Numbered from the stretch's first letter, positions 5,264 through 56,713 are shown. The stretch is DNA of 64,000 nt from Omnitrophica WOR_2 bacterium RIFCSPHIGHO2_02_FULL_48_11 (GCA_001805615.1 MHGP01000073.1:28156-92155), one strand, 5' to 3'. Numbers and translations are program-made. Notes: generated by a model not told the origin, from the letters alone.

Positions 5264-5265
5264 AC

Positions 5266-6321: not shown

Positions 6322-6325
6322 TGGT

Positions 6326-8424: not shown

Positions 8425-8462
8425 TTTAAGCCTCTATCGTTCACTTAACCAAGGAGCCAGCT

Positions 8463-10053: not shown

Positions 10054-10108
10054 TTTTAAAGTTTCTATATGTGACGTGTGACATGGTGACTTTGTGACGG
10101 TGTAAGTT

Positions 10109-26306: not shown

Positions 26307-26335
26307 TTGACAAATTTTAGGCCAGAGATTATACT
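26307..26335 (+). promoter_or_regulatory. consensus sigma70 promoter TTGACA-N17-TATACT
   Basis: TTGACA at 26307-26312, a 17-nt spacer, and TATACT at 26330-26335. It drives the PEP-CTERM gene. Confidence 0.6.
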
Positions 26336-26397
26336 TGCGCTATTGTTTGGGGGTAAATATTTTAAGATCACAAAAAATTATTCACGAGGAGAGAGTC

Positions 26398-29827: not shown

Positions 29828-30892
29828 ATGCTGTATCTTAAGGTAAGAAACATCACTATTTTAATTTTTGTTTTTCTTGTTGCTTCTGGAAATGGCCGGA
29901 GCGAGGCTGACCTGTTGATGTCGGATTTGTCCTTAGCCGCTGAAGCGGGCGTGGGGAGCAATTTGCGCGGATTATCTGGGGCAGCGGAAATGTTTGCCAA
30001 CGCCAATCAAGGCCGCTATCCGGCGAGTATTTCCGATTTGGTCAGTGCCAATCCACCGTATCTTTTTGAAGATTGTTGCGGTAAGACCATCGAAGGGTTT
30101 CAATATTCCTGTAATTTTTCGCCGAAAGGATATGAATTCACCGCAACAGCCGTCGATAGTCAAAAGTTCGGTCCAAGAATTTTTAAAGCTGCGACCGGTC
30201 AGCAGATGACCGGCCCGGAAATGAAGATGGTCAATGATCCTAAATACGGTTCTAAACCGGCGTACCAATATCTTTTTGTTTCAGACAATAAAAGTTTTAC
30301 AAAGAAAGCTATGGCTAACGGCGTTGCGATTGTTTATTTTGGGTTTGATGAAAATACTCCCTTTGAAGAAACTCAAAAATATCTTAAGTCCGGAACCATT
30401 CAAGACATTTATGATATGGACAATATGATAAGAGAATATGCTAATAAAAACGGCTATGCGTTTATCTATGAGGCCATCCAGTGTCAGTGCAATGAAGAGG
30501 ATATTACCCATGACCTTAGGGAATATTTATATAAAGCCAAATATAAGAAAGATCGCCCTATTCAGGTAGATGGGGTCCAGGTGAGAAATGACGCTCAGGG
30601 GCAAAGGGTCGAGACGTCATTTATGAACAATAAGAAAAACGGGCCGGAAAAGACGTATTATGATACCGGTGAGTTATATGAAGAAAAGAATTATAAGGAC
30701 GGAAATTATGATGGTATCTTTAAACAATATTATAAGGACGGAACCCTGATGGCTGAGTACCATTTTAAGAATGGCGAATCTGCGGGGGAAACAAGAACGT
30801 ATTATGAAGATGGAAAATTGCGGTCGGTTACCGGGAGCAGACCTGACGGAGGCACGGTGATATACGACCGTGAAGGCAATGTGCGTCAATAA
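29828..30892 (+). CDS. secreted protein with C-terminal MORN-variant (YwqK-family) repeats
   Basis: Signal peptide. The C-terminal third has repeats KTYYDTGELYEEKNYKDGNYDGIFKQYYKDGTLMAEYHFKNGESAGETRTYYEDGKL. The N-terminal two thirds are unassigned. Confidence 0.65.
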   Translation: MLYLKVRNITILIFVFLVASGNGRSEADLLMSDLSLAAEAGVGSNLRGLSGAAEMFANANQGRYPASISDLVSANPPYLFEDCCGKTIEGFQYSCNFSPKGYEFTATAVDSQKFGPRIFKAATGQQMTGPEMKMVNDPKYGSKPAYQYLFVSDNKSFTKKAMANGVAIVYFGFDENTPFEETQKYLKSGTIQDIYDMDNMIREYANKNGYAFIYEAIQCQCNEEDITHDLREYLYKAKYKKDRPIQVDGVQVRNDAQGQRVETSFMNNKKNGPEKTYYDTGELYEEKNYKDGNYDGIFKQYYKDGTLMAEYHFKNGESAGETRTYYEDGKLRSVTGSRPDGGTVIYDREGNVRQ

Positions 30893-31323: not shown

Positions 31324-31410
31324 TAGAGACGAAAGGGCAAACCTGTCGAGAGACAGGGACGCAAAGCCACGTGGCCCCGATGTAACGTCGGGGTGGCCGG
31401 GCTACCGAAA
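31324..31410 (+). promoter_or_regulatory. c-di-GMP-I (GEMM) riboswitch aptamer
   Basis: GGGCAAACC-UGUC-GAGA-GACA-GGGACGCAAAGCC ... GGGCUACCGA. The core GGGCAAACC, the GNRA-capped P2 and GACGCAAAGCC are identical to the Vibrio Vc2 aptamer. The 3' GGGCUACCGA matches Vc2 GGGUUACCGA. Confidence 0.75.
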
Positions 31411-31460: not shown

Positions 31461-33962
31461 GTGAAGGATAAATTTCAATATAATGATTTTCGTATTTACG
31501 GGTTACTATTTTTTGCTCTCAGCGTTTCTCTTATATTTCTCCCAACCCCTATCTTTGCCGAAGCACAACTTAAAATTACAAACGAAGGAACACTCTATAT
31601 AAGTGCCGATAACGACGCTGATAAATTTTTTGCTCTGGGATACGGTTATGCTAAGGCCATGCCGGACAGATTGGGGGCCAAGATAGCCCGGGACTGCAAC
31701 TATAGCCGTCATGAAAATGGACAAAACTACAACATTTTAAATGGGGTGGCCTATCTCTATCGACCCCCGGCGGTCGATTTTGACGAACGTGGAAGGCTAT
31801 TGCCGATCCCCAGCGGAAAGATGCCCACACCGGTTATGGTTGATATGGCCCGTCATTTTGACGGCACGTGTCAGGATATGGAGGAAGTCTGGAATTCTCT
31901 GAGCGTTGAGCAGCGAAATCATTTTAGCAATTTGGCTGCCGGTTATAATTATTATTTCGAAACAAACTGGACTGCAGGAGACGCAGTTGCTGTCAAATAC
32001 CCATTTTTGCAAAATTTTAAAGGAGCTGAACTTAACCCAAAAATCCTCCCCTTTGAAGGACCAGGCTTTCAATCTCTGTATGAGTGGAAGACATTAATAG
32101 AGATTGTACAAAACCCCCCTAAAAATTATAAGGAGGCTGTACAGCTGCAAAATTCTCAGCCGATCTATGCCACGGCTTCTTTTAATTCTCACCTCAATGG
32201 CCCGTCTCTGGCCAAGGACACTCTGGCGGTCAATTTTGGGTCAATCCATGTGCCCATGTATAGCCAAGGTCAGGTCGTAACTGTAGCCATTTCTGATGAG
32301 GATCCCATTACCGGAGAAGTCAAACGTACAATGGTCGGTGGAGCGGTCGAATTAACTTTACCGACTATCTTTAGTAAATGGGACGAGTTGGGGAAGGGGA
32401 CATCCTTGAATGTCGTTGCAAAAAATTTGCAAATACCAACCATCTACGCCATCAAAATCCCACGGGGATCGTTGACTCAGTATATTGATCCTCTAAGTGG
32501 CCGATCCGTCCCGTATGAAACGAAAATTTATACCTTTAGGACCGGAAATGGAAAGGCCTATACCCGCACGGTTAAAAAAGTTCCTGGTTTCGGTAAAGTC
32601 TTTCATATCGGTTCGGATTACGCATTGACCTTTCATAAAGATGTTCAAAAGGATCTCTGGGGGTTATTTACTCATGAACTTTATACTGCTGAAAATACGG
32701 CTGCGGCGGTCCGCAAGGCCTTTCAGGATAGACAGGGGAACCCTCTGGTTAGCGGATTTACCTTCACGGCGGTTCATGTTGACTCCCATAATCCTATTTC
32801 TTCCAGCACCGGAACAGCGTACAGCGTTGGTTTTGTTCCCCGGTTTAATAATCCTAATAAAGTGACGGAGTTAATTCTGGCTAAGCGCGATAAAATTTTG
32901 CCGGCTAATGTGGACACCCAAGCTAAAGGCATCTTGTCTTTAAATGAAATTCAAACGATCCTCGCTCCGGGAGAAGTGGGTCCGATGGTGAATGGGAATA
33001 CGCCTTTATCAACTGTTTTAGGTCATAAGCAGCAATATTTGCATCCAAAAAATTCCGAGATTTCTTACCCTCTCCATTACGGGGGGGTCACCGAACCTTT
33101 TGAAAGAGGACATTCCATAACAGGAAAGGTCCTCACGGAACGATTGGTCAAAAAGGGAGATGTGACCTGCGATGATTACTTTACAGGCGTGGTGGATAGT
33201 TACGATAATGTGACCTTAAGGGATTCTTTAAAAATTTATTATTCTGCGATAGAAAAGTATGGCATGGCTCTCGTCAATGATTCAGCGCCCAAGGCATGGA
33301 TTATGGGGACTTTATTGGATGCCGTTATGCATTATTGGGATTTTCAGGCCAGAGGAGACGATCCCTTGGCGGCGGTGTTCGGGGTTTTTTATTACCTCCT
33401 GGATAAAGAAATTTCAAATCTGCAAAACACTGATCCCGCTTTAGCTGCTGAACTGAAAGAATTTCTGGGGGCTTCCGTTATCATGGCAGAGACCGGTTCT
33501 GAACCTTCGCTTTCTTTTGAAGCGGCAAAAATTATCACCGATAAAATTATTGATTCCGTTGATACCCTCATTCAATCCGGTTGGAGAAAATTAGCGGACA
33601 TGCAACAAACTTGCTTTTGGAGTCAAGACGATAAAGGTTATAAGTTAGAATGCTACCCGTTCGACCGAGGTTCCAACGGGCCCAACGCCAATGGTGCGGG
33701 TTGGGATCCGGTCGCCAGAAAATTCACCCGTGGCGGCGGCAACCAATTTCCCATCTTTTCTTGCTATACCAAAGATGGGCTCAAAGTGAAATATCAGAAC
33801 AATATCAGCGGTTGGACCCTGGGCTCCGGCCCGGCGGCCCATACCGCCAGGAATTTCGCTCAAGGCGTCTGGAGTGAATTCAATGAATTTGAGCACGTGC
33901 CGCCCGCAGAAGTCATTTTTGAGAAAAACTTTGGGCATTCCCGCCAACCGGTTCTCCCATAG
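31461..33962 (+). CDS. large secreted protein of unknown function (833 aa)
   Basis: GTG start after GGAGGG. N-terminal signal/TM (YGLLFFALSVSLIFLPTPIFAEA). No motif recognised across 800 aa. Confidence 0.7.
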   Translation: MKDKFQYNDFRIYGLLFFALSVSLIFLPTPIFAEAQLKITNEGTLYISADNDADKFFALGYGYAKAMPDRLGAKIARDCNYSRHENGQNYNILNGVAYLYRPPAVDFDERGRLLPIPSGKMPTPVMVDMARHFDGTCQDMEEVWNSLSVEQRNHFSNLAAGYNYYFETNWTAGDAVAVKYPFLQNFKGAELNPKILPFEGPGFQSLYEWKTLIEIVQNPPKNYKEAVQLQNSQPIYATASFNSHLNGPSLAKDTLAVNFGSIHVPMYSQGQVVTVAISDEDPITGEVKRTMVGGAVELTLPTIFSKWDELGKGTSLNVVAKNLQIPTIYAIKIPRGSLTQYIDPLSGRSVPYETKIYTFRTGNGKAYTRTVKKVPGFGKVFHIGSDYALTFHKDVQKDLWGLFTHELYTAENTAAAVRKAFQDRQGNPLVSGFTFTAVHVDSHNPISSSTGTAYSVGFVPRFNNPNKVTELILAKRDKILPANVDTQAKGILSLNEIQTILAPGEVGPMVNGNTPLSTVLGHKQQYLHPKNSEISYPLHYGGVTEPFERGHSITGKVLTERLVKKGDVTCDDYFTGVVDSYDNVTLRDSLKIYYSAIEKYGMALVNDSAPKAWIMGTLLDAVMHYWDFQARGDDPLAAVFGVFYYLLDKEISNLQNTDPALAAELKEFLGASVIMAETGSEPSLSFEAAKIITDKIIDSVDTLIQSGWRKLADMQQTCFWSQDDKGYKLECYPFDRGSNGPNANGAGWDPVARKFTRGGGNQFPIFSCYTKDGLKVKYQNNISGWTLGSGPAAHTARNFAQGVWSEFNEFEHVPPAEVIFEKNFGHSRQPVLP

Positions 33963-38506: not shown

Positions 38507-38644
38507 ATGTCCAATATCATTGCATTTGTGAAAACATATGCTATGCCTAAGAGTATAGGGGAATGGATTTTTGTTATCTTTATGACCTTTGTCTGTATCG
38601 CCACAGTCATTTTCTTGATCCAGGGTTATCTTACGGTCAATTAA
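38507..38644 (+). CDS. 45-aa hydrophobic peptide (hypothetical)
   Basis: ATG 8 nt after AAGGGAGGTG. MSNIIAFVKTYAMPKSIGEWIFVIFMTFVCIATVIFLIQGYLTVN. Below the ORF-track length cutoff. Confidence 0.35.
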   Translation: MSNIIAFVKTYAMPKSIGEWIFVIFMTFVCIATVIFLIQGYLTVN

Positions 38645-38696
38645 TACCCGTTGAAAGAATTTTTTCTCCTGCGTTAAGACTTTTCCATTTCCTCTC

Positions 38697-38724
38697 TTTA
38701 CCAATTCCGCTTTTGTGCTAAAAT
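38697..38724 (+). promoter_or_regulatory. putative sigma70 promoter TTTACC-N16-TGcTAAAAT
   Basis: Extended -10 TGCTAAAAT at 38716-38724 and -35 TTTACC at 38697-38702. It would drive the DsbA-like to YyaL array. Confidence 0.4.
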
Positions 38725-38773: not shown

Positions 38774-39421
38774 ATGTCTAAGAAAATTCAGCCGAAGAGA
38801 AATTCTAAAAAGATTTTTACCGTTATTTTGATCCTTGCTGTCGTAGCGGTTATCTTAGGGGTGCAGTGGTATTTGCAGTCGTCCCGCTCGCTCTCGCAAG
38901 GGGTGTCCTCCCGGGCCAAGGGAACCCCCGGCGCCGCCATTCATATCGTCGAGTATATTGACTTTGAATGTCCGGCATGTGCCACCGGAGCCAAAAAATT
39001 AAAAGAATACGTGGCCATGTATCCTGAGAAAATTTATTTGGAAATGCGTTATTATCCTCTTTTGAATATTCACCCGCATGCCCTGCACGCCGCTCGTTAC
39101 GCCCAATGTGCCGCTCAGCAGGGAAAATTTTGGCCGCTGCACGATCTCTTGATCGAGCGGCAAGGGCAGTGGCAATCTCTTATCAATGCCGACCCGGTTT
39201 TTATGCAGATGGCCCAAGAAGTGTCTTTGGACATGAACTCCCTCGAGGTATGCCTGCAGGATGAAAAAACCGTCAAGCTGATCCTTGAGGAGAGGGACAA
39301 GGGGAGTTCGTTAGGCGTTCAATCCACCCCGACATATTTTATTAATGAAAAAATGGTCGTTGGGGTTAAATCATTAACCGATATGCTGCAGCCGCTTCTA
39401 GAAAATGGACAAAATAAATAA
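38774..39421 (+). CDS. membrane-anchored DsbA-like thiol:disulfide oxidoreductase (thioredoxin fold, CPAC)
   Basis: N-terminal TM. IDFECPACATGAKKLKEY active site. Confidence 0.75.
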   Translation: MSKKIQPKRNSKKIFTVILILAVVAVILGVQWYLQSSRSLSQGVSSRAKGTPGAAIHIVEYIDFECPACATGAKKLKEYVAMYPEKIYLEMRYYPLLNIHPHALHAARYAQCAAQQGKFWPLHDLLIERQGQWQSLINADPVFMQMAQEVSLDMNSLEVCLQDEKTVKLILEERDKGSSLGVQSTPTYFINEKMVVGVKSLTDMLQPLLENGQNK

Positions 39422-39863
39422 CTTCGGTGTTATCGCACGGATCCTGCTCGGGACAATTTTTGTCGTCTCGGGTGCGGAAAAACTTCTTAGTCCCTACCAA
39501 AATTTTCTTTATGTCATCCAAAATTATCAGCTAATCGGCCCGCCTCTGGACGAATGGGTCGCCCGGATCTTTCCATGGATCGAATTTTTGCTGGGATTGT
39601 TCTGCCTTTTGGGTCTGTGGCTGACGCGGTCTTTGGAAGGGATCCTGGTTATCGTGACGGTTTTTATCGGCGTTGTCGGACAGGCCCTGATCCGCGGCTT
39701 GCCGATCGACGAATGCGGTTGCTTTGGCAGCCTTGTTTCGCTTCCCTTGCAGGGAGTGATCATCGTGGATAGCTGCCTGTGGCTGTTAACGTCCTGGCTG
39801 CTTTTCCCCGGCGCTAAGGCTTCGCGTTTCAGTCTCGACGAGTATTTTTCAAAAAATTCATAA
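39405..39863 (+). CDS. MauE/DoxX-like membrane protein with CGCFG motif
   Basis: Four predicted TM helices and DECGCFGS, characteristic of the MauE / DoxX-like family. It overlaps the upstream gene by 17 nt. Confidence 0.6.
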   Translation: MDKINNFGVIARILLGTIFVVSGAEKLLSPYQNFLYVIQNYQLIGPPLDEWVARIFPWIEFLLGLFCLLGLWLTRSLEGILVIVTVFIGVVGQALIRGLPIDECGCFGSLVSLPLQGVIIVDSCLWLLTSWLLFPGAKASRFSLDEYFSKNS

Positions 39864-39874
39864 TCTTAAACGAT

Positions 39875-41395
39875 ATGGCTTTGAGAGTTAAGAGAACACT
39901 GCGGATCCGGGGTTTATTTTTATTTTTCTTGATCGCTATGACTTCTTTTGCCTTTAGCCAGCCGGAAATCAAAGAACCCAATGTCAGCGGGCAGTTTTAT
40001 GACGCTGATCCTAAGCGTTTGTCCCGCATGGTGGATGAGTTCCTGAGCCTGGCCTCCGTCCCGCAGAAAGACAAAAGAATAGAAATGATCATTGCTCCGC
40101 ACGCCGGGTATGTGTATTCCGGGGCCGTAGCCGGATACAGTTTTAAGGCGGCCAGTCAAGGAAAATATAAAACAGTGGTGATCGTCGCCCCGAGTCATTT
40201 TTACGAATTTGACGGTGTTTCGATCTGGAAAGAGGGGGGATTCAAAACGCCTTTAGGGGTGGTGGCGGTGGATCAAGATTTTACGGAAAAATTGATCGGC
40301 CGAAATGCAAAATTTTCTTTTGACGCCGCGGCGTTCGATCGGGAACATTCCCTCGAAGTGGAAATTCCTTTTTTGCAAAGAACGTTTAGTGATTTTAAAA
40401 TTGTGCCGGTGGTGATGGGCCAGGCGACGTTTCAGACGTGCGAGGCCTTTGCCGCAGCGCTCAAAGAGGTGATCGGTGACCGGGAAGATGTGCTGATTGT
40501 CATCAGCACGGATCTGTCCCATTACCACGATTATGACCTTGCCCGGGAGATGGACCATCGCACTTTGGCGGCCGTCAAAATAGGCAATGCCCAAGAATTG
40601 TGGAAACAGTGCCGCTTGGGAACAATGGAGATGTGCGGTTTTATTCCGGTGACAACCGCGCTTTTATACGCTCAGCTCAAGGGATTGAACGATGTGGAAA
40701 TTTTGCGGTATGCCAACTCCGGGGATGTGACCGGAGACCGCGGCCGGGTAGTCGGGTATTCGTCGGTGATCTTTTATGAGGGAACAGAGAAGACCCCTGT
40801 GGATAAAAAAGCCGCAGCAGAAGTTCCTGCCCAGGCCGGGTCGTTCACGCAAGAGCAAAAAAAGCGGCTGCTTGAGATCGCGCGCGGCACCATCGAAGAG
40901 TATGTGCGCACCGGCAAGAAAGTGGAAGTTTCGGAAACAGACCCGCGCCTTCTCAGGGAAGAAGGGGCGTTCGTGACCATCCATCGGCAAGGCCAGCTGC
41001 GCGGCTGCATCGGGAACATTATCGGACAGGGGCCGCTTTATCTCACCGTGCGTAATATGGCCATCGCGGCCGCCTCGGAAGATCCGCGGTTTCCGCCGGT
41101 CAGCGAAGCAGAGTTAAAGGATCTTGAGGTGGAAATTTCCGTCTTGTCGCAGCCCAGGCCCGCTAACAGTATTAAGGAGATTACCATGGGAGTACACGGG
41201 GTGATCGTCAAGAAAGGATTTCATGGCGGGGTTTTTTTGCCGCAGGTGGCGACCGATACCGGCTGGAGCCGGGACGAATTCCTCTCTCAGCTGTGCGAGC
41301 AGAAAGCCGGATTGCCGCGCGATTGCTGGAAAGATCCCAGAACGCGGTTGGAAATTTTTACGGCGGAAGTTTTCTCGGGAAAAGACGTAAAATAA
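39875..41395 (+). CDS. Memo-like / AMMECR1 fusion protein with N-terminal signal peptide
   Basis: The N-terminal half has MIIAPHAGYVYSGAVAGY and VIVAPSHF (Memo/extradiol-dioxygenase class III-like). The C-terminal half has FVTIHRQGQLRGCIGNIIG...ASEDPRF (AMMECR1). The first 30 aa (LRIRGLFLFFLIAMTSFAFSQP) look like a signal peptide. Confidence 0.8.
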   Translation: MALRVKRTLRIRGLFLFFLIAMTSFAFSQPEIKEPNVSGQFYDADPKRLSRMVDEFLSLASVPQKDKRIEMIIAPHAGYVYSGAVAGYSFKAASQGKYKTVVIVAPSHFYEFDGVSIWKEGGFKTPLGVVAVDQDFTEKLIGRNAKFSFDAAAFDREHSLEVEIPFLQRTFSDFKIVPVVMGQATFQTCEAFAAALKEVIGDREDVLIVISTDLSHYHDYDLAREMDHRTLAAVKIGNAQELWKQCRLGTMEMCGFIPVTTALLYAQLKGLNDVEILRYANSGDVTGDRGRVVGYSSVIFYEGTEKTPVDKKAAAEVPAQAGSFTQEQKKRLLEIARGTIEEYVRTGKKVEVSETDPRLLREEGAFVTIHRQGQLRGCIGNIIGQGPLYLTVRNMAIAAASEDPRFPPVSEAELKDLEVEISVLSQPRPANSIKEITMGVHGVIVKKGFHGGVFLPQVATDTGWSRDEFLSQLCEQKAGLPRDCWKDPRTRLEIFTAEVFSGKDVK

Positions 41396-41406
41396 AAATT
41401 ATCCTT

Positions 41407-41859
41407 ATGAAATTGCGCGATACCGTCATCACGATTTTTGTCATCCTCTGGCTGGCCGTATTCAACTACGAATCTATTCACCGGTATTATCTGGAACCTT
41501 GGCTGAAGCGGCCGCTGCCTAAAATGAAACTGCTTTTCCCTCCGGCCGGGTGGATCATGTTTTACAATGTCGAAGATGATTACGGCTATGCGCAAATTTA
41601 CGGGGTCAATGTCGACGGCGTTCAGGAGATCGATCCGCACGAGATCTTGGCTACGCGGACCATCGGGTTCGACAATATCCACCGGAATGTTCTTTTGGTC
41701 GTTTTTGGCGAGGCCATGCCGGGGCAGGTGTGCCGGTTCTTGGAACGCAAATTCCCGGAATTTGATAATTTTTTGATCACGGCGGCGCAGTATCCTTCGC
41801 TGACGCAGACCCCGCATAAAAAACTCCAGCGGGTGTTGTATCAGTGCAAGGAAAAGTGA
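41407..41859 (+). CDS. small membrane protein, candidate SdpA-like partner of the HTTM protein
   Basis: The start is re-picked at 41407. 150 aa with an N-terminal TM (VITIFVILWLAVF). Separated by 11 nt and 15 nt from its neighbours. The SdpA analogy is inference from size and position only. Confidence 0.5.
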   Translation: MKLRDTVITIFVILWLAVFNYESIHRYYLEPWLKRPLPKMKLLFPPAGWIMFYNVEDDYGYAQIYGVNVDGVQEIDPHEILATRTIGFDNIHRNVLLVVFGEAMPGQVCRFLERKFPEFDNFLITAAQYPSLTQTPHKKLQRVLYQCKEK

Positions 41860-41874
41860 GGCTAAGTCCTATTT

Positions 41875-43167
41875 ATGAATAAAATTTGGCACACATTGTT
41901 CCTGGAAGAGCGTCCCTCGGTGAGCCTCTCATTATTCCGGATCGCGGTCGCCATCACCGTCGGCGCCCACGTCATTCCGACATTATGGAACCTGCCGGAC
42001 AATTATTACGCCACCGCGCTTAAAACTTTTAATTTTGATTTTTTCCCTGTACAGCTCATTGAGCTTGTTCAGCGCAGCTCGGACCAGACGGTCTTGTTCT
42101 TTGTTATTGTCTTTTATGTTTTTTGGTTCTTTTTCCTGATCGGATTGTTCAGCCGGTTGAGCTGCATCCTGATGACCCTGGCCGGGTATTATTTTTATGC
42201 GTTGAATTCGCTGCATGTCGGGACCTTGTCTTGGGATATCTTGCTGGTCACGCTTTTTCTCATGTGCTTGACACCGTATCACGGCGACTATTTTTCCGTC
42301 GATGCCGTGCGGCGGGGGGATGCGGGAAGCTACAAGCGAAAGCGGCCGTTCTTTCTGCAGCGGTTGCTGCAGATCCAGATCGCTTCGACATTTTTTTATA
42401 CGGCGCTTTATAAGATCACCGGCACCGGCAACTGGATCAGCGGCAATCCTATTTATTATCTGATGAATTATCCGCCGGCGGGTGTCACCAAATGGTTCCT
42501 GCTGCGGGATTTTTTTATGGACAAGCCCGGCCTTTGCTATGCGGCGGGCCTCTTGATCCTGATCATTGAAATTTCGATGCCGGTCTTATTGTTCTGGCGA
42601 CGCACCCGGATGTCGGCGATTTATGTGGGGTGCTTTTTTCATCTCGTCCTCATTTTAACGCTGGATGTGCCGGCGATCTTCTTTTTTCTCTTCCCGCCGC
42701 AACTGTTGTTATTCATCAACCCGGAAAATATCGTGCGTTGGATCGAACAGAAGCGCCGGGCTAACGCGCAGGCTCCGCAGAGTCAGCTTATCTACGACGG
42801 GCATTGCCAATTTTGCCGGCGCAGCGTACAACAGCTGCAGGTCATGGATTTATTCCATACGCTTAAAATGGTGGACTTCCAGTCGACCAGTCATTTGGAG
42901 GCATTGCATCCTGAGCTGAGCAAGGAGCGCTGTGCCAGCCAGCTCCATTTGCTTGAACCCGACCGAACATTGTACGGAGGATTTGCGGTCTTTCGGCGGC
43001 TGTGCCTTATCCTGCCGATGCTGTATCCGTTCATATTGCTGTTTTATTTTCCGGGCTCGGGGATCGTCGGTCCGTTCGTCTATCGCTGGGTCGCGCAAAA
43101 CCGGTATCTTTTTCATTTCAATAAAACCTGCAAAGACAATGCCTGCTTTTTGGGGCATGGAAAATAA
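41875..43167 (+). CDS. HTTM-domain (vitamin K-dependent gamma-carboxylase / SdpB-like) membrane protein fused to C-terminal DCC/DUF393 thiol-disulfide oxidoreductase domain
   Basis: About 300-aa polytopic N-terminus with an HTTM-like pattern (LSLFRIAVA..., multiple aromatic TM helices). The C-terminus is LIYDGHCQFCRRSVQ...LYGGFAVFRRL, which is the DCC-family DGxCxxC signature. Confidence 0.7.
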   Translation: MNKIWHTLFLEERPSVSLSLFRIAVAITVGAHVIPTLWNLPDNYYATALKTFNFDFFPVQLIELVQRSSDQTVLFFVIVFYVFWFFFLIGLFSRLSCILMTLAGYYFYALNSLHVGTLSWDILLVTLFLMCLTPYHGDYFSVDAVRRGDAGSYKRKRPFFLQRLLQIQIASTFFYTALYKITGTGNWISGNPIYYLMNYPPAGVTKWFLLRDFFMDKPGLCYAAGLLILIIEISMPVLLFWRRTRMSAIYVGCFFHLVLILTLDVPAIFFFLFPPQLLLFINPENIVRWIEQKRRANAQAPQSQLIYDGHCQFCRRSVQQLQVMDLFHTLKMVDFQSTSHLEALHPELSKERCASQLHLLEPDRTLYGGFAVFRRLCLILPMLYPFILLFYFPGSGIVGPFVYRWVAQNRYLFHFNKTCKDNACFLGHGK

Positions 43168-43253
43168 AAGAAATTGCTGACGGCTTTTTGTATTGTGATA
43201 AGATAGCGGTGTTTAAAAATACGACACAAAATTATGCAAGGTGGGGGTTTTCA

Positions 43254-43934
43254 ATGCGTCTGTTGCGATTATATTCTATTTTTATGATCATTTTTTGCTT
43301 GAGCGGGCCTGCCGTCGCCGATGAGGTTCCCGTCGCCGATGAGGTCTCCGAAAAGGCGCTCCAGGAATTTCAACGCTCATATCGTAAAGAAAAAAAACAG
43401 CAAGCGAAGGACGTGCGCAAGCAAGAAAAGGCGGAGCACAAAGCGGCTTTGCGGGAGGAGAAACGCGCCCGCAAACAAGAACGCCTGGAGAGTAAAAAAG
43501 CTAAAAAAGCAGCCCGGGTTCCGAAAAAACAAAAGCCTCAGGTGACAAAAGTTAAACCGCCAAAAAAAACAAAGGCGTTGGCTAAAAAGAAAATCGCTAA
43601 TGAGCAAAAGCAGCAGCGCAAGAAAATATCGCAGGGGCGGCAGTCGGAGTGGGACCGGCAGGTAAAGCAAAAACAAAAAGAAATCAGCCAGCAGCGTGCC
43701 AAGATCAAGAAGGAAATGACCGATGGGATAGAGCCGCTGTATCAAGACGCGGTGCGGGAATATAAAGCCAAGAATTATGCTATGGCGGAAGAAATATTTT
43801 TAGAAATCGATCAGCTCATGCCGGACTACCGGCAGACCAAGGATTATTTGAGCCGCCTGGGATCGCAGCCGGAGCTAGGGGTGTCCCGCGGCCGGCACGG
43901 TATTGTTTCCGACGCCCTGGACAGTATCCCTTAA
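43254..43934 (+). CDS. secreted K/E/R-rich coiled-coil protein with helical C-terminal domain
   Basis: The start is re-picked at 43254. Signal MRLLRLYSIFMIIFCLSGPAVA. Tandem VADEVPVADEVSE duplication. A 150-aa lysine-rich block. Confidence 0.6.
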   Translation: MRLLRLYSIFMIIFCLSGPAVADEVPVADEVSEKALQEFQRSYRKEKKQQAKDVRKQEKAEHKAALREEKRARKQERLESKKAKKAARVPKKQKPQVTKVKPPKKTKALAKKKIANEQKQQRKKISQGRQSEWDRQVKQKQKEISQQRAKIKKEMTDGIEPLYQDAVREYKAKNYAMAEEIFLEIDQLMPDYRQTKDYLSRLGSQPELGVSRGRHGIVSDALDSIP

Positions 43935-43942
43935 GAGAGTTT

Positions 43943-44284
43943 ATGAAATATTTAAAATTTTTCATTCTTTTGGCAATCTTAAGCACCGCCGGAACGTCTT
44001 GGGCTATCCCGGCGTCCAAGATCGAGCTGAGCTATGATCCGGGAAAAAAGATCTTGCATACGAAAGTCAGCCATGTCACCCAGCGCAATCGCAAGCATTA
44101 TATCCGCTCCATCATTGTTTATAAAAACGATCAGGAAGTCAAATCTTTGCATTATGTCGTGCAGGAAAAGTCTTCCGGGGTGGAGGAGGATATCCCTCTG
44201 GAAGCCAATAAAGATGAAGTGATCCGTGTCAAAGCCCAATGCACGGAATCCGGCCCGAAAGAAGAAACGCTCGTCATCCCTTAA
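43943..44284 (+). CDS. small secreted protein (hypothetical)
   Basis: Signal peptide ...TSWA. 113 aa. No motif recognised. Confidence 0.5.
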
Positions 44285-46413
44285 TGACTCACCCGCACAC
44301 CAATCGTCTTATTCACGAAAAAAGTCCGTATCTTTTACAGCATGCGCATAATCCGGTGGATTGGTATTCCTGGGCAGCGGAGGCCTTTGCCAAGGCCAAG
44401 AAAGAAGATAAACCGATCTTTCTTTCCATCGGATATTCGACTTGCCATTGGTGTCATGTCATGGAACATGAATCCTTTGAGAACGAAGAGATCGCCCAGG
44501 TTTTGAATGAACATTTTGTTCCGGTCAAAGTGGACCGGGAAGAGCGGCCGGATTTGGATAATGTGTATATGACGGTCGTCACGGCGTTGACGGGGAGCGG
44601 GGGATGGCCGCTGTCGGTTTTTCTTTCACCGGATAAAAAGCCGTTTTACGGCGGAACGTATTTTCCGCCGCAGGCCCGGTGGGGCGCTCCCGGATTTAAA
44701 GATGTGTTGCTTTCCATTCACAACAGCTGGCAGACGCAGAAACAAGAAATTTTGAAATCCGGCGAAGCCATCACCCAGGCTTTGCAAGAACGTTCGGGGG
44801 CGCGGCGGGTCGAGAAGATTGATTTGAACGCCCAGCTGCTGCGCGGAGGTTATCAGGATTTGGCGGCTAACTATGATCCGCGTTACGGCGGGTTCGGCGA
44901 GTCACCGAAGTTTCCGATGGGGCACAGCTTGTCATTTTTGCTGCGGTATGGGAACCGTTTCGCGGAACCGCAGGCGCTTGCGATGGTCGAAAAGACGCTC
45001 ACGGCTATGGCCCAGGGCGGCATGTATGATCAATTGGGCGGAGGGTTTCACCGGTACTCGACGGATCGCATTTGGCAGGTCCCGCATTTTGAAAAAATGC
45101 TTTATGATCAAGCGATCCTGGCAAAAATATATCTGGAAGCGTATCAGGCCACGAGGGATGAATTCTATCGCCGCATTGCCGCAGAGATTTTAGACTATGT
45201 CCTGCGGGACATGCATTCGCCCGCGGGGGGATTTTTTTCAGCGGAAGATGCGGACAGTCTTGAATCGGCCGGGGGCACGGAAAAAAAAGAAGGCGTTTTT
45301 TATGTGTGGCCCGAAAGCGAGATCAGGACCATCCTGAGCAGCGAGGAAGCGGATATTTTTTGCGCTCATTTTGGGATCGAAAAGAACGGCAATGCGCAGT
45401 TTGATCCGCACGGTGAATTTGCCGGAAAGAATATTATTTTTGTCGCGCATTCTCTGGAGGAAGCCGCCCAGAAATTTCAAAAGGTTCCGGCGGATGTCGA
45501 GTGGATCATCCGGCAGGCTAAGAAAAAATTATATGCCGTGCAGACTCAGCGGCCGCGGCCGCACCTCGATGATAAAATTCTGGTCGATTGGAATGGTTTG
45601 ATGATCGCGAGTTTTGCGACGGCGTATTCTCTGCTGGGGGAAAAACGTTATCTGACAGCGGCCCAGCAGGCGGCTGATTTTATTTTGCAGAAATTGGTTA
45701 ACCGGGAAGGGCGGTTGCTGCACCGGTTTCGCGACGGTGAGGCGGCGATCTTGGGGACGATCGAAGATTATGCCTTTTTTATCCACGGCCTGATCGATCT
45801 TTATCAGGCAAATTTTGAAGTGAAATATTTTCAGGAAGCGATGCGTCTAACAGAAGAGATGCTGCGTTTGTTTTGGGATGAGCCGCAGGGAGGATTTTTC
45901 TTTACAGCGTTGGACAGTGAGACATTGCTGTTTCGCCAAAAAGAGGTTTATGACGGCGCGATCCCCTCGGGAAATTCCGTGGCGGCGTTAGATTTGATCC
46001 GCCTAGCCCGCATGACGGGGAACGGGGATTTTGAAGCAAAGGCCGCGGCGCTTTTTCAATTTTTCGGTGCGGAACTTATGCAGCGGCCCAGCGCGTATAC
46101 GCAATTGTTCAGTGCTTTAAATTTTGCCTTAGGTCCTTCCCGGGAGATCGTTATTGCGGCGGATCGCCTGGAAGATCCTGCGGCACAGGAGATGCTCAAG
46201 GCAAGCCGGGCGGTTTTTTTGCCGAACACCGTGCTTTTGGCCCGCACGACGCATGATAAAAAACTGGCTGATCTCCTGCAGCTGGCCCCTTTTCTTAAAG
46301 AACAGCCCCCCATGAACGGCCAGCCGACCGCTTACGTCTGCGAGAATCATGTCTGCCGGCTCCCTACGAATTCGCCTGAGCAGTTTAAAAAACTTTTGCA
46401 GAGCGGGCCTTAA
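44284..46413 (+). CDS. thioredoxin-domain (DUF255) protein with (alpha/alpha)6 N-acylglucosamine-2-epimerase-like domain (YyaL / SSP411 family)
   Basis: The start is re-picked at 44284 (TAATG overlap). [20 protein letters not shown] is the thioredoxin-like CxxC of DUF255. The C-terminal ~450 aa form a six-hairpin fold family. Confidence 0.8.
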
Positions 46414-53467: not shown

Positions 53468-56400
53468 ATGGCTAAGACCGCAAAAATAAAATATTCTCTC
53501 GATGGACAAGGCTGCTTTGTCATCGAAAATTATAATCAAGCCAAACCTTTCAGCAATTTTTTCCCAGGGATCGCCGGTTTGTGGGGCATTCCGATGTGGG
53601 TGTTTTATGTTAATCGCGGCCAAGGCATTGCCAGTTTCGGTACCCATGGAAAGGACAAATCGCTGGTCGAGTTTCAACCCGCCAATAAAGCCTACCGCTT
53701 GACCTCGCTGCAGGGCTTTCGAACGTTTTTAAAATTAACCTCCGGCAGTAAAAAAATATTCTGGGAACCTTTTCAGAATCATTCCGGCGTTTCCGGTTTC
53801 AAGACGAAACAGGTCATGCGCATCACTTCGCATGATTTGACGATCGAAGAGGAGAATGCTTTCTTAGGTATCGGGGTCCGGGTGAATTATTTTACTCTGC
53901 CCCAAGAACCGTTGGCCGCGCTTATCCGGCGCGTGACGATCATTAATTTGGGAAGAAAAAAATGGAATGTTGAGCTGGTTGACGGGTTGCCCGTCTTTTT
54001 TCCCTATGGGCTCAATGACTGGGCGGCCAAGAATATGTCCCGGACCGTTGAGGCCTGGGTCAATGTGCGCGGGGTGGACAAGAAAACTCCCTATTATCAT
54101 TTGCGGGCCGAGGTCGCCGATACCCCGCAGGTCAAACACATCAAAGAAGGAAATTTTTATTTTAGTTTTGAAAAAGACGGCGCCAAGGCCAAACTGCTTG
54201 AGCCCATTGTTGAGGCGGCCTGTGTTTTTGGCAGCGTCTTGGATTTTGTTCAGCCGGAAACTTTTATGAATGCCGCAAAATTTCAGGTGCCGCGCACCCA
54301 GCAGACCAGCAACCGGACCCCTGCAGCGATGAGTTTCAGCCGTTTTTCATTAGGGGGCCGTGAAGAAAAGACTTTTATCGCGGCGGCGGGGTTTGCTCAC
54401 AGCGAGGCGCAGTTGAGCCAATTTGCCGCCCAGGCCCTCCGGCAGGATTTTGTCGCCCAAAAGGCCGCAGAGAATAAAGCGGTCGTCGAAGAAGTAAAAC
54501 ATTTTGCTTTCACCCGGAGTTCTTCCCCGGAGTTCGATCTGTATTGCCAGCAGACATTCTTGGACAATGTCTTGCGCGGCGGGCTGCCGGTTTCTTTGAA
54601 AACAGGAGAAGGGGTGGCGGCCTTTAATGTTTTTAGCCGTAAGCACGGTGACCTGGAACGGGATTATAATTGGTTTGTCCTGGCGCCGACCTATTTCTCG
54701 CAAGGCAACGGCAACTACCGCGACGTCAACCAAAACCGGCGCAATGATGTTTGGTTCAACGCCGATGTGAAAGAAAATCATATCGTCAATTTCCTCAGCC
54801 TGATCCAGGCGGATGGATATAATCCGCTGGTGGTCAAGGGAATGACTTTTTCCGTGGGCCAGGCGTCCCGGGCCGAGGCAGTGCTCAAAGAATTGTGTGC
54901 CGGTGAGGTTTCGGCGCATCTTAAAGAAATGTTGGTGAAAGGTTTTCAGCCCGGAGAATTGCTGCAGGCCGTTGAGCAGGAGGGGATCAAGCTTAAGATT
55001 TCGTTAAAAGATTTTTTGAGCAAGATCTTGGGCGTATCGCAGAAACATGAATCCGCGGATCACGGTGAGGGTTTTTGGACAGACCATTGGACGTATAATA
55101 CCGATCTTTTGGAAAGTTTTGTGGCGGTTTATCCGGATCAGTTCGCCGCTCTCTTGCTGGAGAAGAAAGTTTTTAGTTTTTATTTTAATTCCCATTATGT
55201 CCTGCCCCGCGACCATCGGTATATCCTGACCGCTCACGGTGTCCGGCAGTATCATTCGGTGCACAACGATCCCAAAACAACCAAAGCCGCCGAGCGCGGG
55301 CACAAACTGCACACTAAGCACGGGGAGGGTGAGGTTTACCACACGCATCTCTTGGCCAAGTTGGTGTGCTTGTTGGCCAACAAGGCCGCCACCCTTGATC
55401 CCAGCGGTATCGGGGTTGAGATGGAAGCGGATAAACCCAATTGGTATGATGCCTTAAACGGCCTGCCCGGCCTGGTCGGTTCTTCCATTTCCGAGACATT
55501 CGAGATCAAGCGTCTTGCGGTATTTTTGCTCAATGCGTTGGAGCAGGCGGCGTTCAGCGAAAAACAAAAGATCTCTATTTTTATTGAATTATATAATTTT
55601 GTGACGGAATTGAAAAATGTTTTGGCTTCGGCCACAGAGCCTTTGGATTATTGGTCGCGAGCGAATGAAGCCAAAGAGCATTACCGTTTTCATACCCGTG
55701 CCGGCATCGAAGGCGCGGAAAAAGACATGACCATCGCCGAGTTGAAAGAATTTTTGAAATTGATCGTCCAAAGAACAAGCCAGGGCACTGCCGCGGCCAA
55801 AGACCGGGCGGGCCTGTATCCGACCTATTTTTATCATGAGATAACGGATTATCAGAAAATGGACCGTCTGCATGCGCCGGGTGTGCCGTATGTTAAGCCG
55901 CTCAAATTTCGTCGGCAGCAGTTGCCTTTATTCCTGGAAGGGTTTGTGCATGCGTTGCGGGTGGCGGAGAATGTTCCTGAGGCCCGCGCGCTTTACCAGG
56001 GTGTCCGGCGGAGCCCGCTTTTTGATAAAAAATTGGCGATGTATAAAGTGAATGCCCAGCTGGCGGAGGCGACGGAAGAAATCGGGCGCGCGCGTATTTT
56101 TCCGCCCGGATGGCTGGAGAATGAGTCGATCTGGCTGCACATGGAATACAAATTTTTATTGGAACTTCTGCGTTGCGGTTTGTACGAAGAGTTTTATGAA
56201 AATTTCAATAAAGCGCTGATCCCTTTTTTAAAGCCGGAACAGTACGGCCGCAGCACCCTGGAGAGCTCTTCGTTCATTGTGAGCAGCATCCATGAAGACG
56301 CGTCGCTGCATGGGCAGGGGTTTGTCGCGCGCCTCTCGGGTAGCACGGCAGAATTCTTGCATATGTGGCTCTGGATGAACCTCGGGAAACAACCGTTCCG

Positions 56401-56713
56401 CCTGAGCCGCGACGGCCAATTGACCTTAACGCTCGCACCGGCACTGCCGGGCTGGCTGTTCAGCGAGAAAGCGGTTAAGGAATTCCCTAAAAATTCTTAT
56501 GCCTTTAATCTTTTCGGCACGACGCGGGTCGTTTATCACAATCCTAAACGAAAAAATACTTTCGGTCAAAACAGCGGCGTGATCAAACGCATCAGTCTTA
56601 CGTATCCGGGGCGGAAAAATCCGGTCATGCTCTCTTCCGCGACGATCCCTGCTCCGTATTCCCACGAGATCCGCGATCGAAAAGTCGAGCGGATCGATGT
56701 GGAATGGGAATAG
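53468..56713 (+). CDS. GH94-like glycoside phosphorylase superfamily protein (1081 aa)
   Basis: The N-terminal NY...FSNFFPGIAG pattern resembles cellobiose phosphorylase (PWINYLG..FFSL). GNGNYRDVNQNRRND matches the catalytic-region G.G..RD.NQ motif of GH94 enzymes. Family assignment is tentative. Confidence 0.55.
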   Translation: MAKTAKIKYSLDGQGCFVIENYNQAKPFSNFFPGIAGLWGIPMWVFYVNRGQGIASFGTHGKDKSLVEFQPANKAYRLTSLQGFRTFLKLTSGSKKIFWEPFQNHSGVSGFKTKQVMRITSHDLTIEEENAFLGIGVRVNYFTLPQEPLAALIRRVTIINLGRKKWNVELVDGLPVFFPYGLNDWAAKNMSRTVEAWVNVRGVDKKTPYYHLRAEVADTPQVKHIKEGNFYFSFEKDGAKAKLLEPIVEAACVFGSVLDFVQPETFMNAAKFQVPRTQQTSNRTPAAMSFSRFSLGGREEKTFIAAAGFAHSEAQLSQFAAQALRQDFVAQKAAENKAVVEEVKHFAFTRSSSPEFDLYCQQTFLDNVLRGGLPVSLKTGEGVAAFNVFSRKHGDLERDYNWFVLAPTYFSQGNGNYRDVNQNRRNDVWFNADVKENHIVNFLSLIQADGYNPLVVKGMTFSVGQASRAEAVLKELCAGEVSAHLKEMLVKGFQPGELLQAVEQEGIKLKISLKDFLSKILGVSQKHESADHGEGFWTDHWTYNTDLLESFVAVYPDQFAALLLEKKVFSFYFNSHYVLPRDHRYILTAHGVRQYHSVHNDPKTTKAAERGHKLHTKHGEGEVYHTHLLAKLVCLLANKAATLDPSGIGVEMEADKPNWYDALNGLPGLVGSSISETFEIKRLAVFLLNALEQAAFSEKQKISIFIELYNFVTELKNVLASATEPLDYWSRANEAKEHYRFHTRAGIEGAEKDMTIAELKEFLKLIVQRTSQGTAAAKDRAGLYPTYFYHEITDYQKMDRLHAPGVPYVKPLKFRRQQLPLFLEGFVHALRVAENVPEARALYQGVRRSPLFDKKLAMYKVNAQLAEATEEIGRARIFPPGWLENESIWLHMEYKFLLELLRCGLYEEFYENFNKALIPFLKPEQYGRSTLESSSFIVSSIHEDASLHGQGFVARLSGSTAEFLHMWLWMNLGKQPFRLSRDGQLTLTLAPALPGWLFSEKAVKEFPKNSYAFNLFGTTRVVYHNPKRKNTFGQNSGVIKRISLTYPGRKNPVMLSSATIPAPYSHEIRDRKVERIDVEWE

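Follow-up and report, generated by a model that had tools for sequence, protein, structure and literature searches.

Do eight closely packed genes in an Omnitrophota genome form a single biochemical system, and what would such a system do? The locus lies in a 64,000-nt stretch of DNA (the window) from Omnitrophica WOR_2 bacterium RIFCSPHIGHO2_02_FULL_48_11. A first-pass annotation had taken the genes (g1–g8; Table 1) for a candidate extracytoplasmic protein-maturation array behind its own putative promoter, in which an HTTM membrane enzyme would act on exported substrates together with several disulfide relay partners.

The locus in the window

Coordinates and spacing of the eight + strand genes are as that annotation gave them, judged from the ORF calls. 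The listed ORF of g4 begins at GTG 41293, and its ATG at 41407 yields the 150-aa product called in public assemblies; g6 has an alternative start at TTG 43188, and the 709-aa product of g8 is the same as in the gene call checked. The shared strand is almost uninformative, because nearly all genes of the 64-kb window lie on the + strand, with GC skew positive along its whole length. The genes are indeed tightly spaced, and what this spacing means depends on conservation in other genomes, which covers g1–g5 only. The promoter proposed for the array survives as a weak site 5' of g1 that matches 9 of 12 consensus positions, and gains nothing from its surroundings: 14 promoter-like sites were found in the region against 9.7 ± 3.1 expected, which is no enrichment.

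Table 1. Coordinates of the eight genes and of the promoter-like site, counted from the first base of the window.
Feature	Coordinates	Strand	Description
Putative promoter-like site	38697-38724	+	TTTACC, 16 nt, TAAAAT, with TG; ~50 nt 5' of g1
g1	38774-39421	+	ORF
g2	39405-39863	+	ORF; 17-nt overlap with g1
g3	39875-41395	+	ORF; 11-nt gap after g2
g4	41407-41859	+	ORF from ATG; 11-nt gap after g3
g5	41875-43167	+	ORF; 15-nt gap after g4
g6	43254-43934	+	ORF; 86-nt gap after g5
g7	43943-44284	+	ORF; 8-nt gap after g6
g8	44284-46413	+	ORF; 1-nt overlap with g7

Conservation across Omnitrophota

Eighty species-level Omnitrophota loci were compared, with the loci evaluable for each gene as its denominator. 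In 77 of 78 loci g4 lies directly 5' of g5, and g3 adjoins this pair in 66 of 73; ten of these carry g3 on the opposite strand, all of them without g1–g2, and g3 is found beside g4–g5 in two further arrangements, convergent and divergent. Upstream, g1 is present in 52/66 loci and g2, always paired with g1, in 53/67. Some 14 loci that retain g4–g5 are missing g1–g2, and about seven have neither g1–g2 nor g3 inside 10 kb of g4–g5. The flanks are far more variable, with 15 different immediate upstream neighbours of g1, while the gene downstream of g5 is FtsW in 20 loci (accompanied by pilus genes), g6 in 16 and other genes elsewhere. The conserved or inspected neighbour families in the 80 loci are housekeeping ones such as NAD kinase, an aldo-keto reductase, PckA, MalQ and FtsW.

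Within 10 kb of the core, g6 is found in 12/69 loci by tblastn (17 per cent; 18 loci by clustering), g7 in 16/68 (24 per cent) and g8 in 19/58 (33 per cent), which makes them no commoner there than the housekeeping neighbours AsmA (18/49) and NUDIX (11/43), and the downstream block therefore looks like subclade synteny. Two of the 19 loci with g8 hold it in non-canonical spots, upstream on the same strand in L082 and 8 kb downstream on the opposite strand in L058. Given that g6–g8 are only occasional, the unit appears to be a five-gene operon, g1–g5, conserved across Omnitrophota and ending where the sole large gap (86 nt) separates g5 from g6. The expectation that orthologous loci would keep the array together is borne out for g1–g5 as a block and fails for g6, g7 and g8, and with it goes the proposed partnership of the two small secreted proteins, g6 and g7.

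The probable thiol-oxidation pair and the Memo–AMMECR1 fusion

The g1 protein matches Pfam Thioredoxin_4 (2.4e-22) and DSBA (3.5e-15) and has a single N-terminal membrane helix preceded by six Lys/Arg. It carries the active site CPAC and a second conserved cysteine pair, C112/C160, and at least 95 per cent of 51 orthologues retain each of C66, C69, C112 and C160; it is predicted to be a membrane-anchored periplasmic DsbA-like thioredoxin. Its neighbour g2 matches Pfam MauE (3.4e-21; 76 bits against a cut-off of 27), with DoxX also above cut-off, and has four helices and a CGCFG loop; at least 95 per cent of 48 orthologues share C104-G-C106-F-G, K26 and E60. It is likely a DsbB-like reoxidant of g1 that hands electrons to quinone.

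The active site and putative quinone contacts of MauE are a CXC followed by Phe-Gly, a helix-1 Lys and a helix-2 Glu (bioRxiv 10.64898/2026.03.05.709764). The same features recur in the MauE domain of g2, as CGC with Phe-Gly, K26 and E60, and g1 supplies the exported, membrane-anchored DsbA-like CxxC partner, such that the two carry every sequence feature of a DsbA/MauE oxidative-folding pair. MauE homologues substitute for DsbB in E. coli via the CXC site, beside which quinone has been docked, and MauE has been proposed as a general DsbB substitute, the replacement in vivo being shown only for proteins of Caldithrix and Desulfatibacillum; Omnitrophota go unnamed in the main text of the preprint (bioRxiv 10.64898/2026.03.05.709764). 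Whereas the known pair stands alone, the Omnitrophota pair is embedded in an operon with three more genes. With MauE described as a generalist and g1–g2 missing from the loci counted above, the link of the pair to the other operon genes may be loose.

The third gene encodes a Sec-type signal peptide followed directly by a Memo domain and then an AMMECR1 domain (Pfam 1.4e-65 and 3.6e-57; TIGR04336 for Memo, 287 bits against a cut-off of 26; TIGR04335 for AMMECR1, 189 bits against 99). A signal-like N-terminal segment is present in 61/61 orthologues, and the metal ligands H76, H158, H216 and C254 are conserved along with an LRGCIG motif, which marks g3 as an exported Memo–AMMECR1 fusion. In scoring far above the cut-offs for the A (AMMECR1) and B (Memo) proteins, and in keeping the metal ligands and LRGCIG, g3 resembles the AmmeMemoRadiSam system, whose radical SAM member is TIGR04337. 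It differs in that the A and B proteins are fused into one, that the fusion bears a conserved signal peptide, and that the Omnitrophota loci inspected are without a neighbouring radical SAM gene: no CxxxCxxC-bearing ORF of that kind occurs in the 64-kb window, one alternative-frame ORF being disregarded, and none was found among the conserved or inspected neighbour families of the 80 loci. A periplasmic g3 could not directly use a cytoplasmic radical SAM enzyme, and the role of g3 is a guess because this usual partner of Memo and AMMECR1 is absent.

A putative HTTM–DCC enzyme and its upstream partner

Residues 16–281 of g5 match Pfam HTTM (51.0 bits against a cut-off of 27.7; E 2e-13), and a DCC1-like match follows (73 bits against 27.8; E 5.8e-20). 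When its AF2 model (pLDDT 81.5) is compared with the PDB by Foldseek, human GGCX accounts for every one of the best 15 matches (probability 1.00; E 3.8e-6 to 5e-4), with ~300 aligned columns and a TM-score of ~0.5 on the query. Profile and structure matches back both the HTTM and the DCC assignment, and the other domain calls of the first-pass annotation are likewise upheld by Pfam or NCBIfam above curated cut-offs; the motifs CPAC (g1), CGCFG (g2) and DGxCxxC (g5) are real and conserved. The model gives g5 a GGCX-type membrane-domain fold, to which a DCC CxxC domain is attached.

Residues K180, W187, H256, D308, G309, C311, C314, C377, C419 and C424 of g5 are invariant, also against Firmicutes homologues. 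The K180/W187 pair, invariant in 20 Omnitrophota and two Firmicutes HTTM-DCC sequences (the latter at ~20 per cent identity), fits the Lys189/Trp195 pair of the Melghirimyces protein (bioRxiv 10.64898/2026.08.19.745780). By its invariance and helix position, Lys180 may be the counterpart of GGCX Lys218, and we infer that it lies on the outward-facing end of helix five, with the active site opening to the periplasm. The DCC domain comes after eight helices with a positive-inside pattern and is therefore probably cytoplasmic.

The product of g4 is single-pass, with one N-terminal helix, and matches no Pfam or NCBIfam family. Invariant residues are W15, FPPxG (44–48), H78, D89, R93, C109 and C147, and the lowest-confidence stretches of its AF2 model (pLDDT 76.5), at 44–46 and 84–92, coincide with strongly conserved motifs. 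The g4 family stands apart and is narrow, 1.84 billion representative proteins yielding 47 clusters and no more. The alpha/beta domain of g4 faces the periplasm and two of its cysteines are an invariant pair; g4 is the obligate upstream partner of g5 and probably its second subunit.

Related two-gene systems

AlphaFold 3 models of DUF5819 with HTTM-DCC proteins give a GGCX-like complex with a menaquinol pocket (bioRxiv 10.64898/2026.08.19.745780). A single-pass accessory gene followed by HTTM-DCC also occurs on B. thuringiensis pCT83 and on a Virgibacillus plasmid, and Ralstonia retains the order of accessory and HTTM with DCC as a separate adjacent gene; the Firmicutes HTTM-DCC loci have small hypothetical proteins and an S8 peptidase upstream. 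The likeness to g4–g5 lies in an accessory protein that is anchored by a single N-terminal membrane helix, has its domain on the outside and is encoded directly before HTTM-DCC, in the invariant Lys, Trp, DGxCxxC and C-terminal Cys common to g5 and the Firmicutes proteins, and in the GGCX-like fold of both g5 and the preprint models. The accessory proteins themselves differ: that of Firmicutes measures 220–232 aa against the 150 of g4, and g4 lies outside Pfam DUF5819, with no match among 22 orthologues even at E ≤ 10, whereas the two plasmid accessory proteins (Bacillus, Virgibacillus) do score at E ~1e-27. Comparison of g4 by hhalign gives probabilities of 2.8 and 0.8 per cent, and all that aligns is the helix together with a Y-[LM]-x-P-[LW]-[FL]-K motif immediately behind it. 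The Firmicutes loci also differ in being on plasmids, beside small proteins and a peptidase, and in being without Memo–AMMECR1 and DsbA/MauE.

The SdpA/SdpB pair of B. subtilis, which serves SDP toxin maturation, likewise comprises a small accessory gene and then an HTTM membrane protein. The Omnitrophota proteins score far under those family cut-offs, with g5 at 21 bits against 178 for SdpB (TIGR04033; E 1.9e-4) and no SdpA match for g4, and no SdpC-like precursor is conserved among the inspected neighbours of the Omnitrophota loci. SdpB is not known to carry a DCC fusion.

A further parallel is the vertebrate vitamin K cycle, formed by GGCX, VKOR and a thioredoxin-like partner. In Omnitrophota a single operon encodes a carboxylase homologue, whose membrane domain folds like that of GGCX, and a quinone-linked thiol oxidase, MauE filling the DsbB/VKOR-type role in which thiol oxidation is coupled to quinone; MauE and VKOR are not known to be homologous. 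In other respects the two differ: g5 has ~18 per cent identity to GGCX, lacks the GGCX lumenal clamp domain (for which g4 may substitute) and has an added DCC domain, and the operon is without a known Gla-type substrate.

Proposed mechanism

There is some reason to see in g1–g5 a quinone-coupled, periplasm-facing modification machine arranged like a bacterial vitamin K cycle, a tentative reading to which we give slightly less than an even chance. Under this proposal g4 and g5 would form a split GGCX-like enzyme, g4 contributing one more membrane helix and a domain in the periplasm, parts that GGCX unites in a single chain. Cysteines in exported proteins, among them probably the invariant pair of g4, would be oxidised by DsbA and MauE, with membrane quinone being reduced to quinol in the process. 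This quinol would be spent by the HTTM domain, probably with O2, on strong-base or oxygenation chemistry at a periplasmic substrate that g4 and the metal-binding Memo–AMMECR1 protein would present or co-process, and returning the oxidised quinone to its reduced state would fall to the cytoplasmic CxxC of DCC. The substrate is not encoded in the operon, where no gene for one is conserved.

A bolder version, which we regard as improbable, is a self-contained bacterial vitamin K cycle in which MauE/DsbA would charge the quinol, g4 and HTTM as a split GGCX homologue would put it to a novel modification in the periplasm (for example carboxylation, or other chemistry of carbanion or oxygenation type), Memo–AMMECR1, exported and independent of radical SAM, would be co-catalyst or substrate, and the cytoplasmic DCC, perhaps fed by DUF255 where present, would recycle the quinone. 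If true, it would be the first biochemical context for the Memo, AMMECR1 and DCC families, and GGCX-type chemistry would be coupled to oxidative protein folding in bacteria. As for the presumed novelty of the array, the DsbA/MauE pair and the pair of accessory protein and HTTM-DCC are each already in 2026 preprints; their combination with an exported Memo–AMMECR1 fusion was not found described, nor was any link of Memo–AMMECR1 to an HTTM enzyme found in the literature.

Alternative explanations

The same proteins might act on a lipid, with HTTM-DCC/g4, MauE and Memo–AMMECR1 epoxidising, ring-modifying or recycling an outer-leaflet isoprenoid quinone or other lipid in the absence of any protein substrate. 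HTTM has been modelled, and MauE docked, with isoprenoid quinone by others, and conservation extends to no gene for a precursor peptide or a substrate, either inside or beside a core with gaps of 11–15 nt and varying flanks. Memo–AMMECR1 gene contexts were also reportedly tied to aliphatic isoprenoid modification by Burroughs and colleagues (2019, J Biol Chem). The small proteins and S8 peptidase beside the Firmicutes homologues point the other way, as does the resemblance of the periplasmic g4 domain to a substrate-binding add-on. The HTTM enzymes known to have been characterised, GGCX and the SdpB system among them, act on peptide-linked substrates, and on balance lipid modification seems rather unlikely. 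Still less probable is that a generalist DsbA/MauE, Memo–AMMECR1 and g4/HTTM-DCC are independent modules joined by synteny and without a common task. A general DsbB substitute would suit such an arrangement, as would the loci in which g4–g5 stand without g1–g2 or without g3 as well, but the order and tight spacing of the block are kept while both flanks change repeatedly, and plain drift would not keep g3 beside g4–g5 in convergent and divergent arrangements.

Two further readings are each very unlikely. That all eight genes make one extracytoplasmic maturation system, in which g6 and g7 would be the substrates or partners and DUF255 one more participant in the relay, accords with their packing in this genome, with the close coupling of g6–g7–g8 (Table 1), and with the presence of g8 near the core in L082 and L058, which is estimated to exceed chance. 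This reading is, however, largely refuted by the counts, the eight genes not being conserved together in relatives and g6–g8 being as frequent as AsmA and NUDIX; FtsW and pilus genes directly follow g5 in 20 loci, and g8 is without an export signal. A system like SdpAB, which would process or export a secreted peptide toxin whose gene lies at another site in the genome, would share the two-gene layout, could draw on the weak SdpB match of g5, and recalls the small hypothetical proteins and S8 peptidase upstream of HTTM-DCC in Firmicutes. That match lies far below the family cut-off, g4 resembles neither SdpA nor DUF5819, and precursor or immunity genes are not conserved nearby in the inspected loci; unlike the plasmid-borne Firmicutes loci, the cassette sits amid housekeeping genes and is conserved across the 80 sampled Omnitrophota species.

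GGCX chemistry requires O2 and quinone. The capacities to make quinone and to respire oxygen are patchily distributed in Omnitrophota, an observation that counts against a GGCX-type reading.

Occasional neighbours

The g6 protein has an N-terminal hydrophobic segment, 54 Lys/Arg in the remaining 205 residues and no Pfam or NCBIfam family; among orthologues the Lys-rich part varies in length and a C-terminal helical motif is conserved. It is predicted to be a secreted or membrane-anchored Lys-rich protein, a facultative neighbour outside the core. The 113-aa g7 product has a signal-like N-terminus and, in the window copy, no Pfam or NCBIfam family above curated cut-offs (Desulfoferrodox at 15.8 bits, below the cut-off of 22.2). 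Nine of 12 orthologues match Pfam Desulfoferrodox weakly (best E 1.5e-4), and H44, H52 and C100 are invariant, which weakly suggests a secreted, desulfoferrodoxin-like (superoxide-reductase-like) protein, again a facultative neighbour.

The Pfam match of g8 to Thioredox_DsbH/DUF255 is strong (6.8e-81), its C-terminal part is (alpha/alpha)6-like, and topology prediction finds no signal peptide and no membrane segment. It appears to be a cytoplasmic YyaL-type thioredoxin-domain protein, loosely tied to the core and at most a facultative cytoplasmic thiol donor. The extracytoplasmic relay of the first-pass annotation is thus only half borne out: it fits g1, g3, the g4 domain and the cysteine loop of g2, all placed in the periplasm, while topology rules put g8 and the DCC domain of g5 in the cytoplasm.

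A conserved five-gene core

The eight plus-strand ORFs (g1–g8) that the first-pass annotation had read as one candidate extracytoplasmic thiol-redox/HTTM maturation system were recovered by ORF calling with the spacing it described: g1 and g2 overlap by 17 nt and g7 and g8 by 1 nt, with gaps of 11, 11 and 15 nt up to g5, 86 nt between g5 and g6 and 8 nt between g6 and g7, figures that rest on start codons matching public gene calls. Every domain it named was also found with Pfam and NCBIfam, in which g4, g6 and g7 matched no family; an Rfam search gave no RNA element in or beside the array. All eight genes do share a strand, but this carries little weight: nearly all genes of the window lie on the plus strand and GC skew is uniformly positive, so that such an arrangement is expected. 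Across 1–64000, only three or four genes lie on the minus strand, the skew is positive in every 2-kb bin, and the window is probably within one replichore, on the leading strand. The promoter-like site proposed upstream is weak, and such sites show no enrichment.

Conservation was assessed in 80 loci, one per species-level genome, each with a g5 relative at 48–82% identity and spanning at most 10 kb either side of it; all are Omnitrophota-type MAGs, some labelled Planctomycetales or Elusimicrobia. The window proteins were mapped onto these loci, and all ORFs of the loci were clustered. The claim of a single conserved unit holds for g1–g5, which are kept together in relatives, but not for g6–g8, which occur in a minority of loci and as a canonical block behave like subclade synteny.

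Gene families and conservation across the compared loci
Gene	Pfam/NCBIfam families	Evaluable loci with gene	Arrangement
g1	DSBA, Thioredoxin_4	52/66	always paired with g2
g2	MauE, DoxX	53/67	always paired with g1, upstream of g3
g3	Memo, AMMECR1	66/73	adjacent; 10 loci in other arrangements
g4		77/78	directly upstream of g5
g5	HTTM, DCC1-like
g6		12/69
g7		16/68
g8	DUF255	19/58	2 in other arrangements
AsmA		18/49	housekeeping neighbour
NUDIX		11/43	housekeeping neighbour

Ten loci without g1–g2 still have a full-length g3 fusion beside g4–g5 but encode it on the other strand, in convergent or divergent orientation, a proximity that is hard to explain without selection. The flanks are variable: 15 different genes immediately precede g1 (PckA and MalQ most often), and g5 is followed by FtsW and pilus genes in 20 loci, by g6 in 16 and by others elsewhere, the flanking names having been assigned by eye from sequence. 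The operon boundary is the 86-nt gap after g5. Apparent g4–g5 fusions of 505–582 aa in four GC-rich loci were rejected as frame artefacts of ORF calling. The window itself is from an Omnitrophota MAG, and a truncated g5 copy, identical over 70% of the query, is deposited under Omnitrophica WOR_2 bacterium RIFCSPHIGHO2_01_FULL_48_9.

A putative disulfide-forming pair beside a carboxylase-like protein

The DsbA-like g1 is anchored at its N-terminus and its CPAC is invariant; the MauE protein g2 is a four-helix protein in which a CGCFG loop, Lys26 and Glu60 are all invariant. MauE proteins from Caldithrix and Desulfatibacillum substitute for DsbB in E. coli, for which their CXC motif is needed; Phe-Gly follows this motif, and a conserved Lys and Glu of helices 1 and 2 lie beside the docked quinone (bioRxiv 10.64898/2026.03.05.709764). 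All of these sequence features are present in g2, and g1–g2 is, as judged from these residues, a member of this recently described general disulfide-forming pathway.

The AlphaFold model of g5 (pLDDT 81.5) has a fold like that of human gamma-glutamyl carboxylase (GGCX), which accounts for all of the best 15 PDB entries at a probability of 1.00; profile sequence searches of PDB gave nothing useful, so the link comes from fold comparison only. Lys180 and Trp187 are invariant, and Firmicutes HTTM-DCC proteins, at ~20% identity, carry them too, together with DGxCxxC, Cys377 and a C-terminal CX4C. With eight helices and positive loop charges that alternate from side to side, both the N-terminus and the DCC domain would be cytoplasmic, and Lys180 is predicted at the periplasmic end of helix 5.

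The upstream neighbour of g5, g4, is made up of one N-terminal helix followed by a domain of ~120 aa in which two Cys are invariant, and belongs to a narrow family (47 clusters among 1.84 billion representative proteins) for which there is no Pfam model. The least confident stretches of its model coincide with strongly conserved motifs, which would fit an interface with a partner. A related arrangement has been reported in a Firmicute, where adjacent DUF5819 and HTTM-DCC1-like genes are predicted by AlphaFold 3 to encode a GGCX-like complex in which the DUF5819 helix replaces a GGCX helix and the DUF5819 domain sits where GGCX has its clamp (bioRxiv 10.64898/2026.08.19.745780). The order of accessory gene then HTTM-DCC recurs on B. 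thuringiensis and Virgibacillus plasmids, and a split, proteobacterial version with three separate genes (accessory, HTTM, DCC) is carried by the Ralstonia solanacearum PSI07 megaplasmid, where the accessory protein is single-pass, has 190 aa and matches no Pfam family, the HTTM protein has 295 aa and the DCC1-like protein 150 aa. The Ralstonia module sits after a beta-lactamase-family gene in a region without annotation in the plasmid table.

DUF5819 and g4 share position and architecture, but any homology is below detection. The g4 profile gave neither DUF5819 nor SdpA in Pfam at E up to 10, hhalign probabilities of at most 3% against two DUF5819 proteins and the Ralstonia accessory protein, and nothing useful in PDB; the likeness is limited to a short motif past the membrane helix. 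We therefore treat g4 as a putative functional analogue of DUF5819, or a homologue diverged past detection. A 204-aa protein in the representative library (P0403) joins g4, from its helix to FLFPP, to g5 from after its own FLFPP through the whole DCC domain; this chimera might have arisen by deletion between these short repeats or through misassembly, and shows LFLFPP to be common to g4 and g5.

An exported Memo–AMMECR1 fusion

The g3 protein scores far above the NCBIfam cut-offs for AmmeMemoRadiSam proteins A and B, and retains the Memo metal ligands and the AMMECR1 LRGCIG motif. Its N-terminus in 61 of 61 orthologues runs from positive charge through a hydrophobic stretch to small residues, with the Memo domain directly after, and by this signal peptide g3 is exported. 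The AmmeMemoRadiSam system likewise has proteins A and B, whereas g3 is exported and fused and has no radical SAM gene in the searched loci: none occurs in the 64-kb window, where CxxxCxxC appears only in one alternative-frame ORF, and those neighbour families of the 80 loci that are conserved or were inspected yielded no partner either. Two clusters considered for this part were rejected on reading their sequences by eye: one, adjoining g3 in convergent loci, reads as NAD kinase, and the other as an aldo-keto reductase. Such a fusion challenges the assumption of an invariably cytoplasmic three-part system. The best 120 matches to g3 were all Omnitrophota orthologues, which says nothing on other phyla.

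Memo–AMMECR1 and DsbA/MauE are absent from the B. thuringiensis, Virgibacillus, Ralstonia and preprint loci, and a full-text literature search for HTTM together with AMMECR1 gave no match. Two modules of the operon were already described in 2026; no description was found of the operon combination, the exported fusion lacking a radical SAM partner or the new g4 family.

Proposed mechanism and alternatives

Five-gene conservation, the domain identities, the fold of g5 and the signal peptide of g3 are firm, and our confidence is much higher in this anatomy than in the chemistry, all of which we infer. In the proposed scheme, DsbA and MauE would oxidise exported cysteines and reduce membrane quinone, and g4 and g5 would together make up a single enzyme whose site at Lys180 opens to the periplasm; there quinol, probably with O2, would be spent on substrate modification. 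Both g4 and g3 might help to bind or process the substrate, although the role of g3 is a guess, and the cytoplasmic DCC CxxC would recycle the quinone. The proposed scheme follows the logic of the vertebrate VKOR–GGCX cycle, here in one operon; we hold this overall picture to be the most likely one, at slightly under even odds.

The leading rival is that the HTTM target is a quinone or lipid and not a protein. Quinone and oxygen metabolism is patchy across Omnitrophota, which is a weakness of the quinol/O2 scheme. Three further readings are less likely than a quinone or lipid target. One is mere synteny of independent modules, against which the opposite-strand g3 loci speak for selected proximity. 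Another is the full eight-gene system, of which a five-gene core with a mixed, not wholly extracytoplasmic, predicted topology is supported; the g8 family recurs near g4–g5 in two arrangements other than that of the window (in L082 it precedes the pair on the same strand, separated from it by an aldo-keto reductase gene, and in L058 it is 8 kb downstream on the opposite strand), which by rough estimate is above chance, so that a loose functional tie of g8 to the core is possible. An SdpAB-like toxin system would share the small accessory protein beside an HTTM protein, and g4 lacks a detectable SdpA relationship.

To our knowledge, Memo, AMMECR1 and DCC are widespread from bacteria to humans with no agreed biochemical function, and bacterial HTTM proteins are barely characterised. 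That all of them share a conserved operon with an enzyme only recently recognised as disulfide-forming provides a concrete co-expression set, the host organisms themselves being uncultured. A quinone-reducing thiol oxidase and a carboxylase homologue paired at the gene level mirror vertebrate VKOR–GGCX, and this analogy hints that such coupling may be older and broader than blood clotting.

Other features of the window

The small secreted g7 protein and its orthologues in L005–L084 bear a weak likeness to desulfoferrodoxin (superoxide reductase): PF01880 is matched, weakly, by 9 of the 12 orthologues, the best at E 1.5e-4, and three residues, His44, His52 and Cys100, are invariant. A periplasmic relative with a partial set of the usual iron ligands would be unusual. 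The 411-nt gap upstream of g1 holds a hydrophobic ORF of 45 aa that has a strong ribosome-binding site (GGGAGGTG) and that a public assembly annotates as a gene; it was excluded from the operon because it is conserved in 0 of the 80 loci. Rfam also places a c-di-GMP-I-GGC riboswitch aptamer (RF03167) a short way upstream of an 833-aa ORF without a confident Pfam family; the aptamer scores 59.5 bits, the gathering score being 59.

Coordinates of the features discussed
Feature	Sequence	Position	Strand	Remark
g1–g8 array	window	38774–46413	+
g7	window	43943–44284	+
45-aa ORF	window	38508–38645	+
RF03167 aptamer	window	31327–31410	+
833-aa ORF	window	31461–33962
tRNA-Met	window	694–767
tRNA-Val	window	778–854
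RNase P RNA class A	window	2016–2472		138 bits
MORN-repeat protein	window	24835–25758	+
MORN-repeat protein	window	29828–30892	+
Protein with PEP-CTERM sorting signal	window	26335–27045	+
1081-aa ORF	window	53468–56713	+	no Pfam family
Split accessory/HTTM/DCC module	L087 (Ralstonia megaplasmid)	5033–6972
DUF255 arrangement	L082	about 6630–11270
DUF255 arrangement	L058	about 18120
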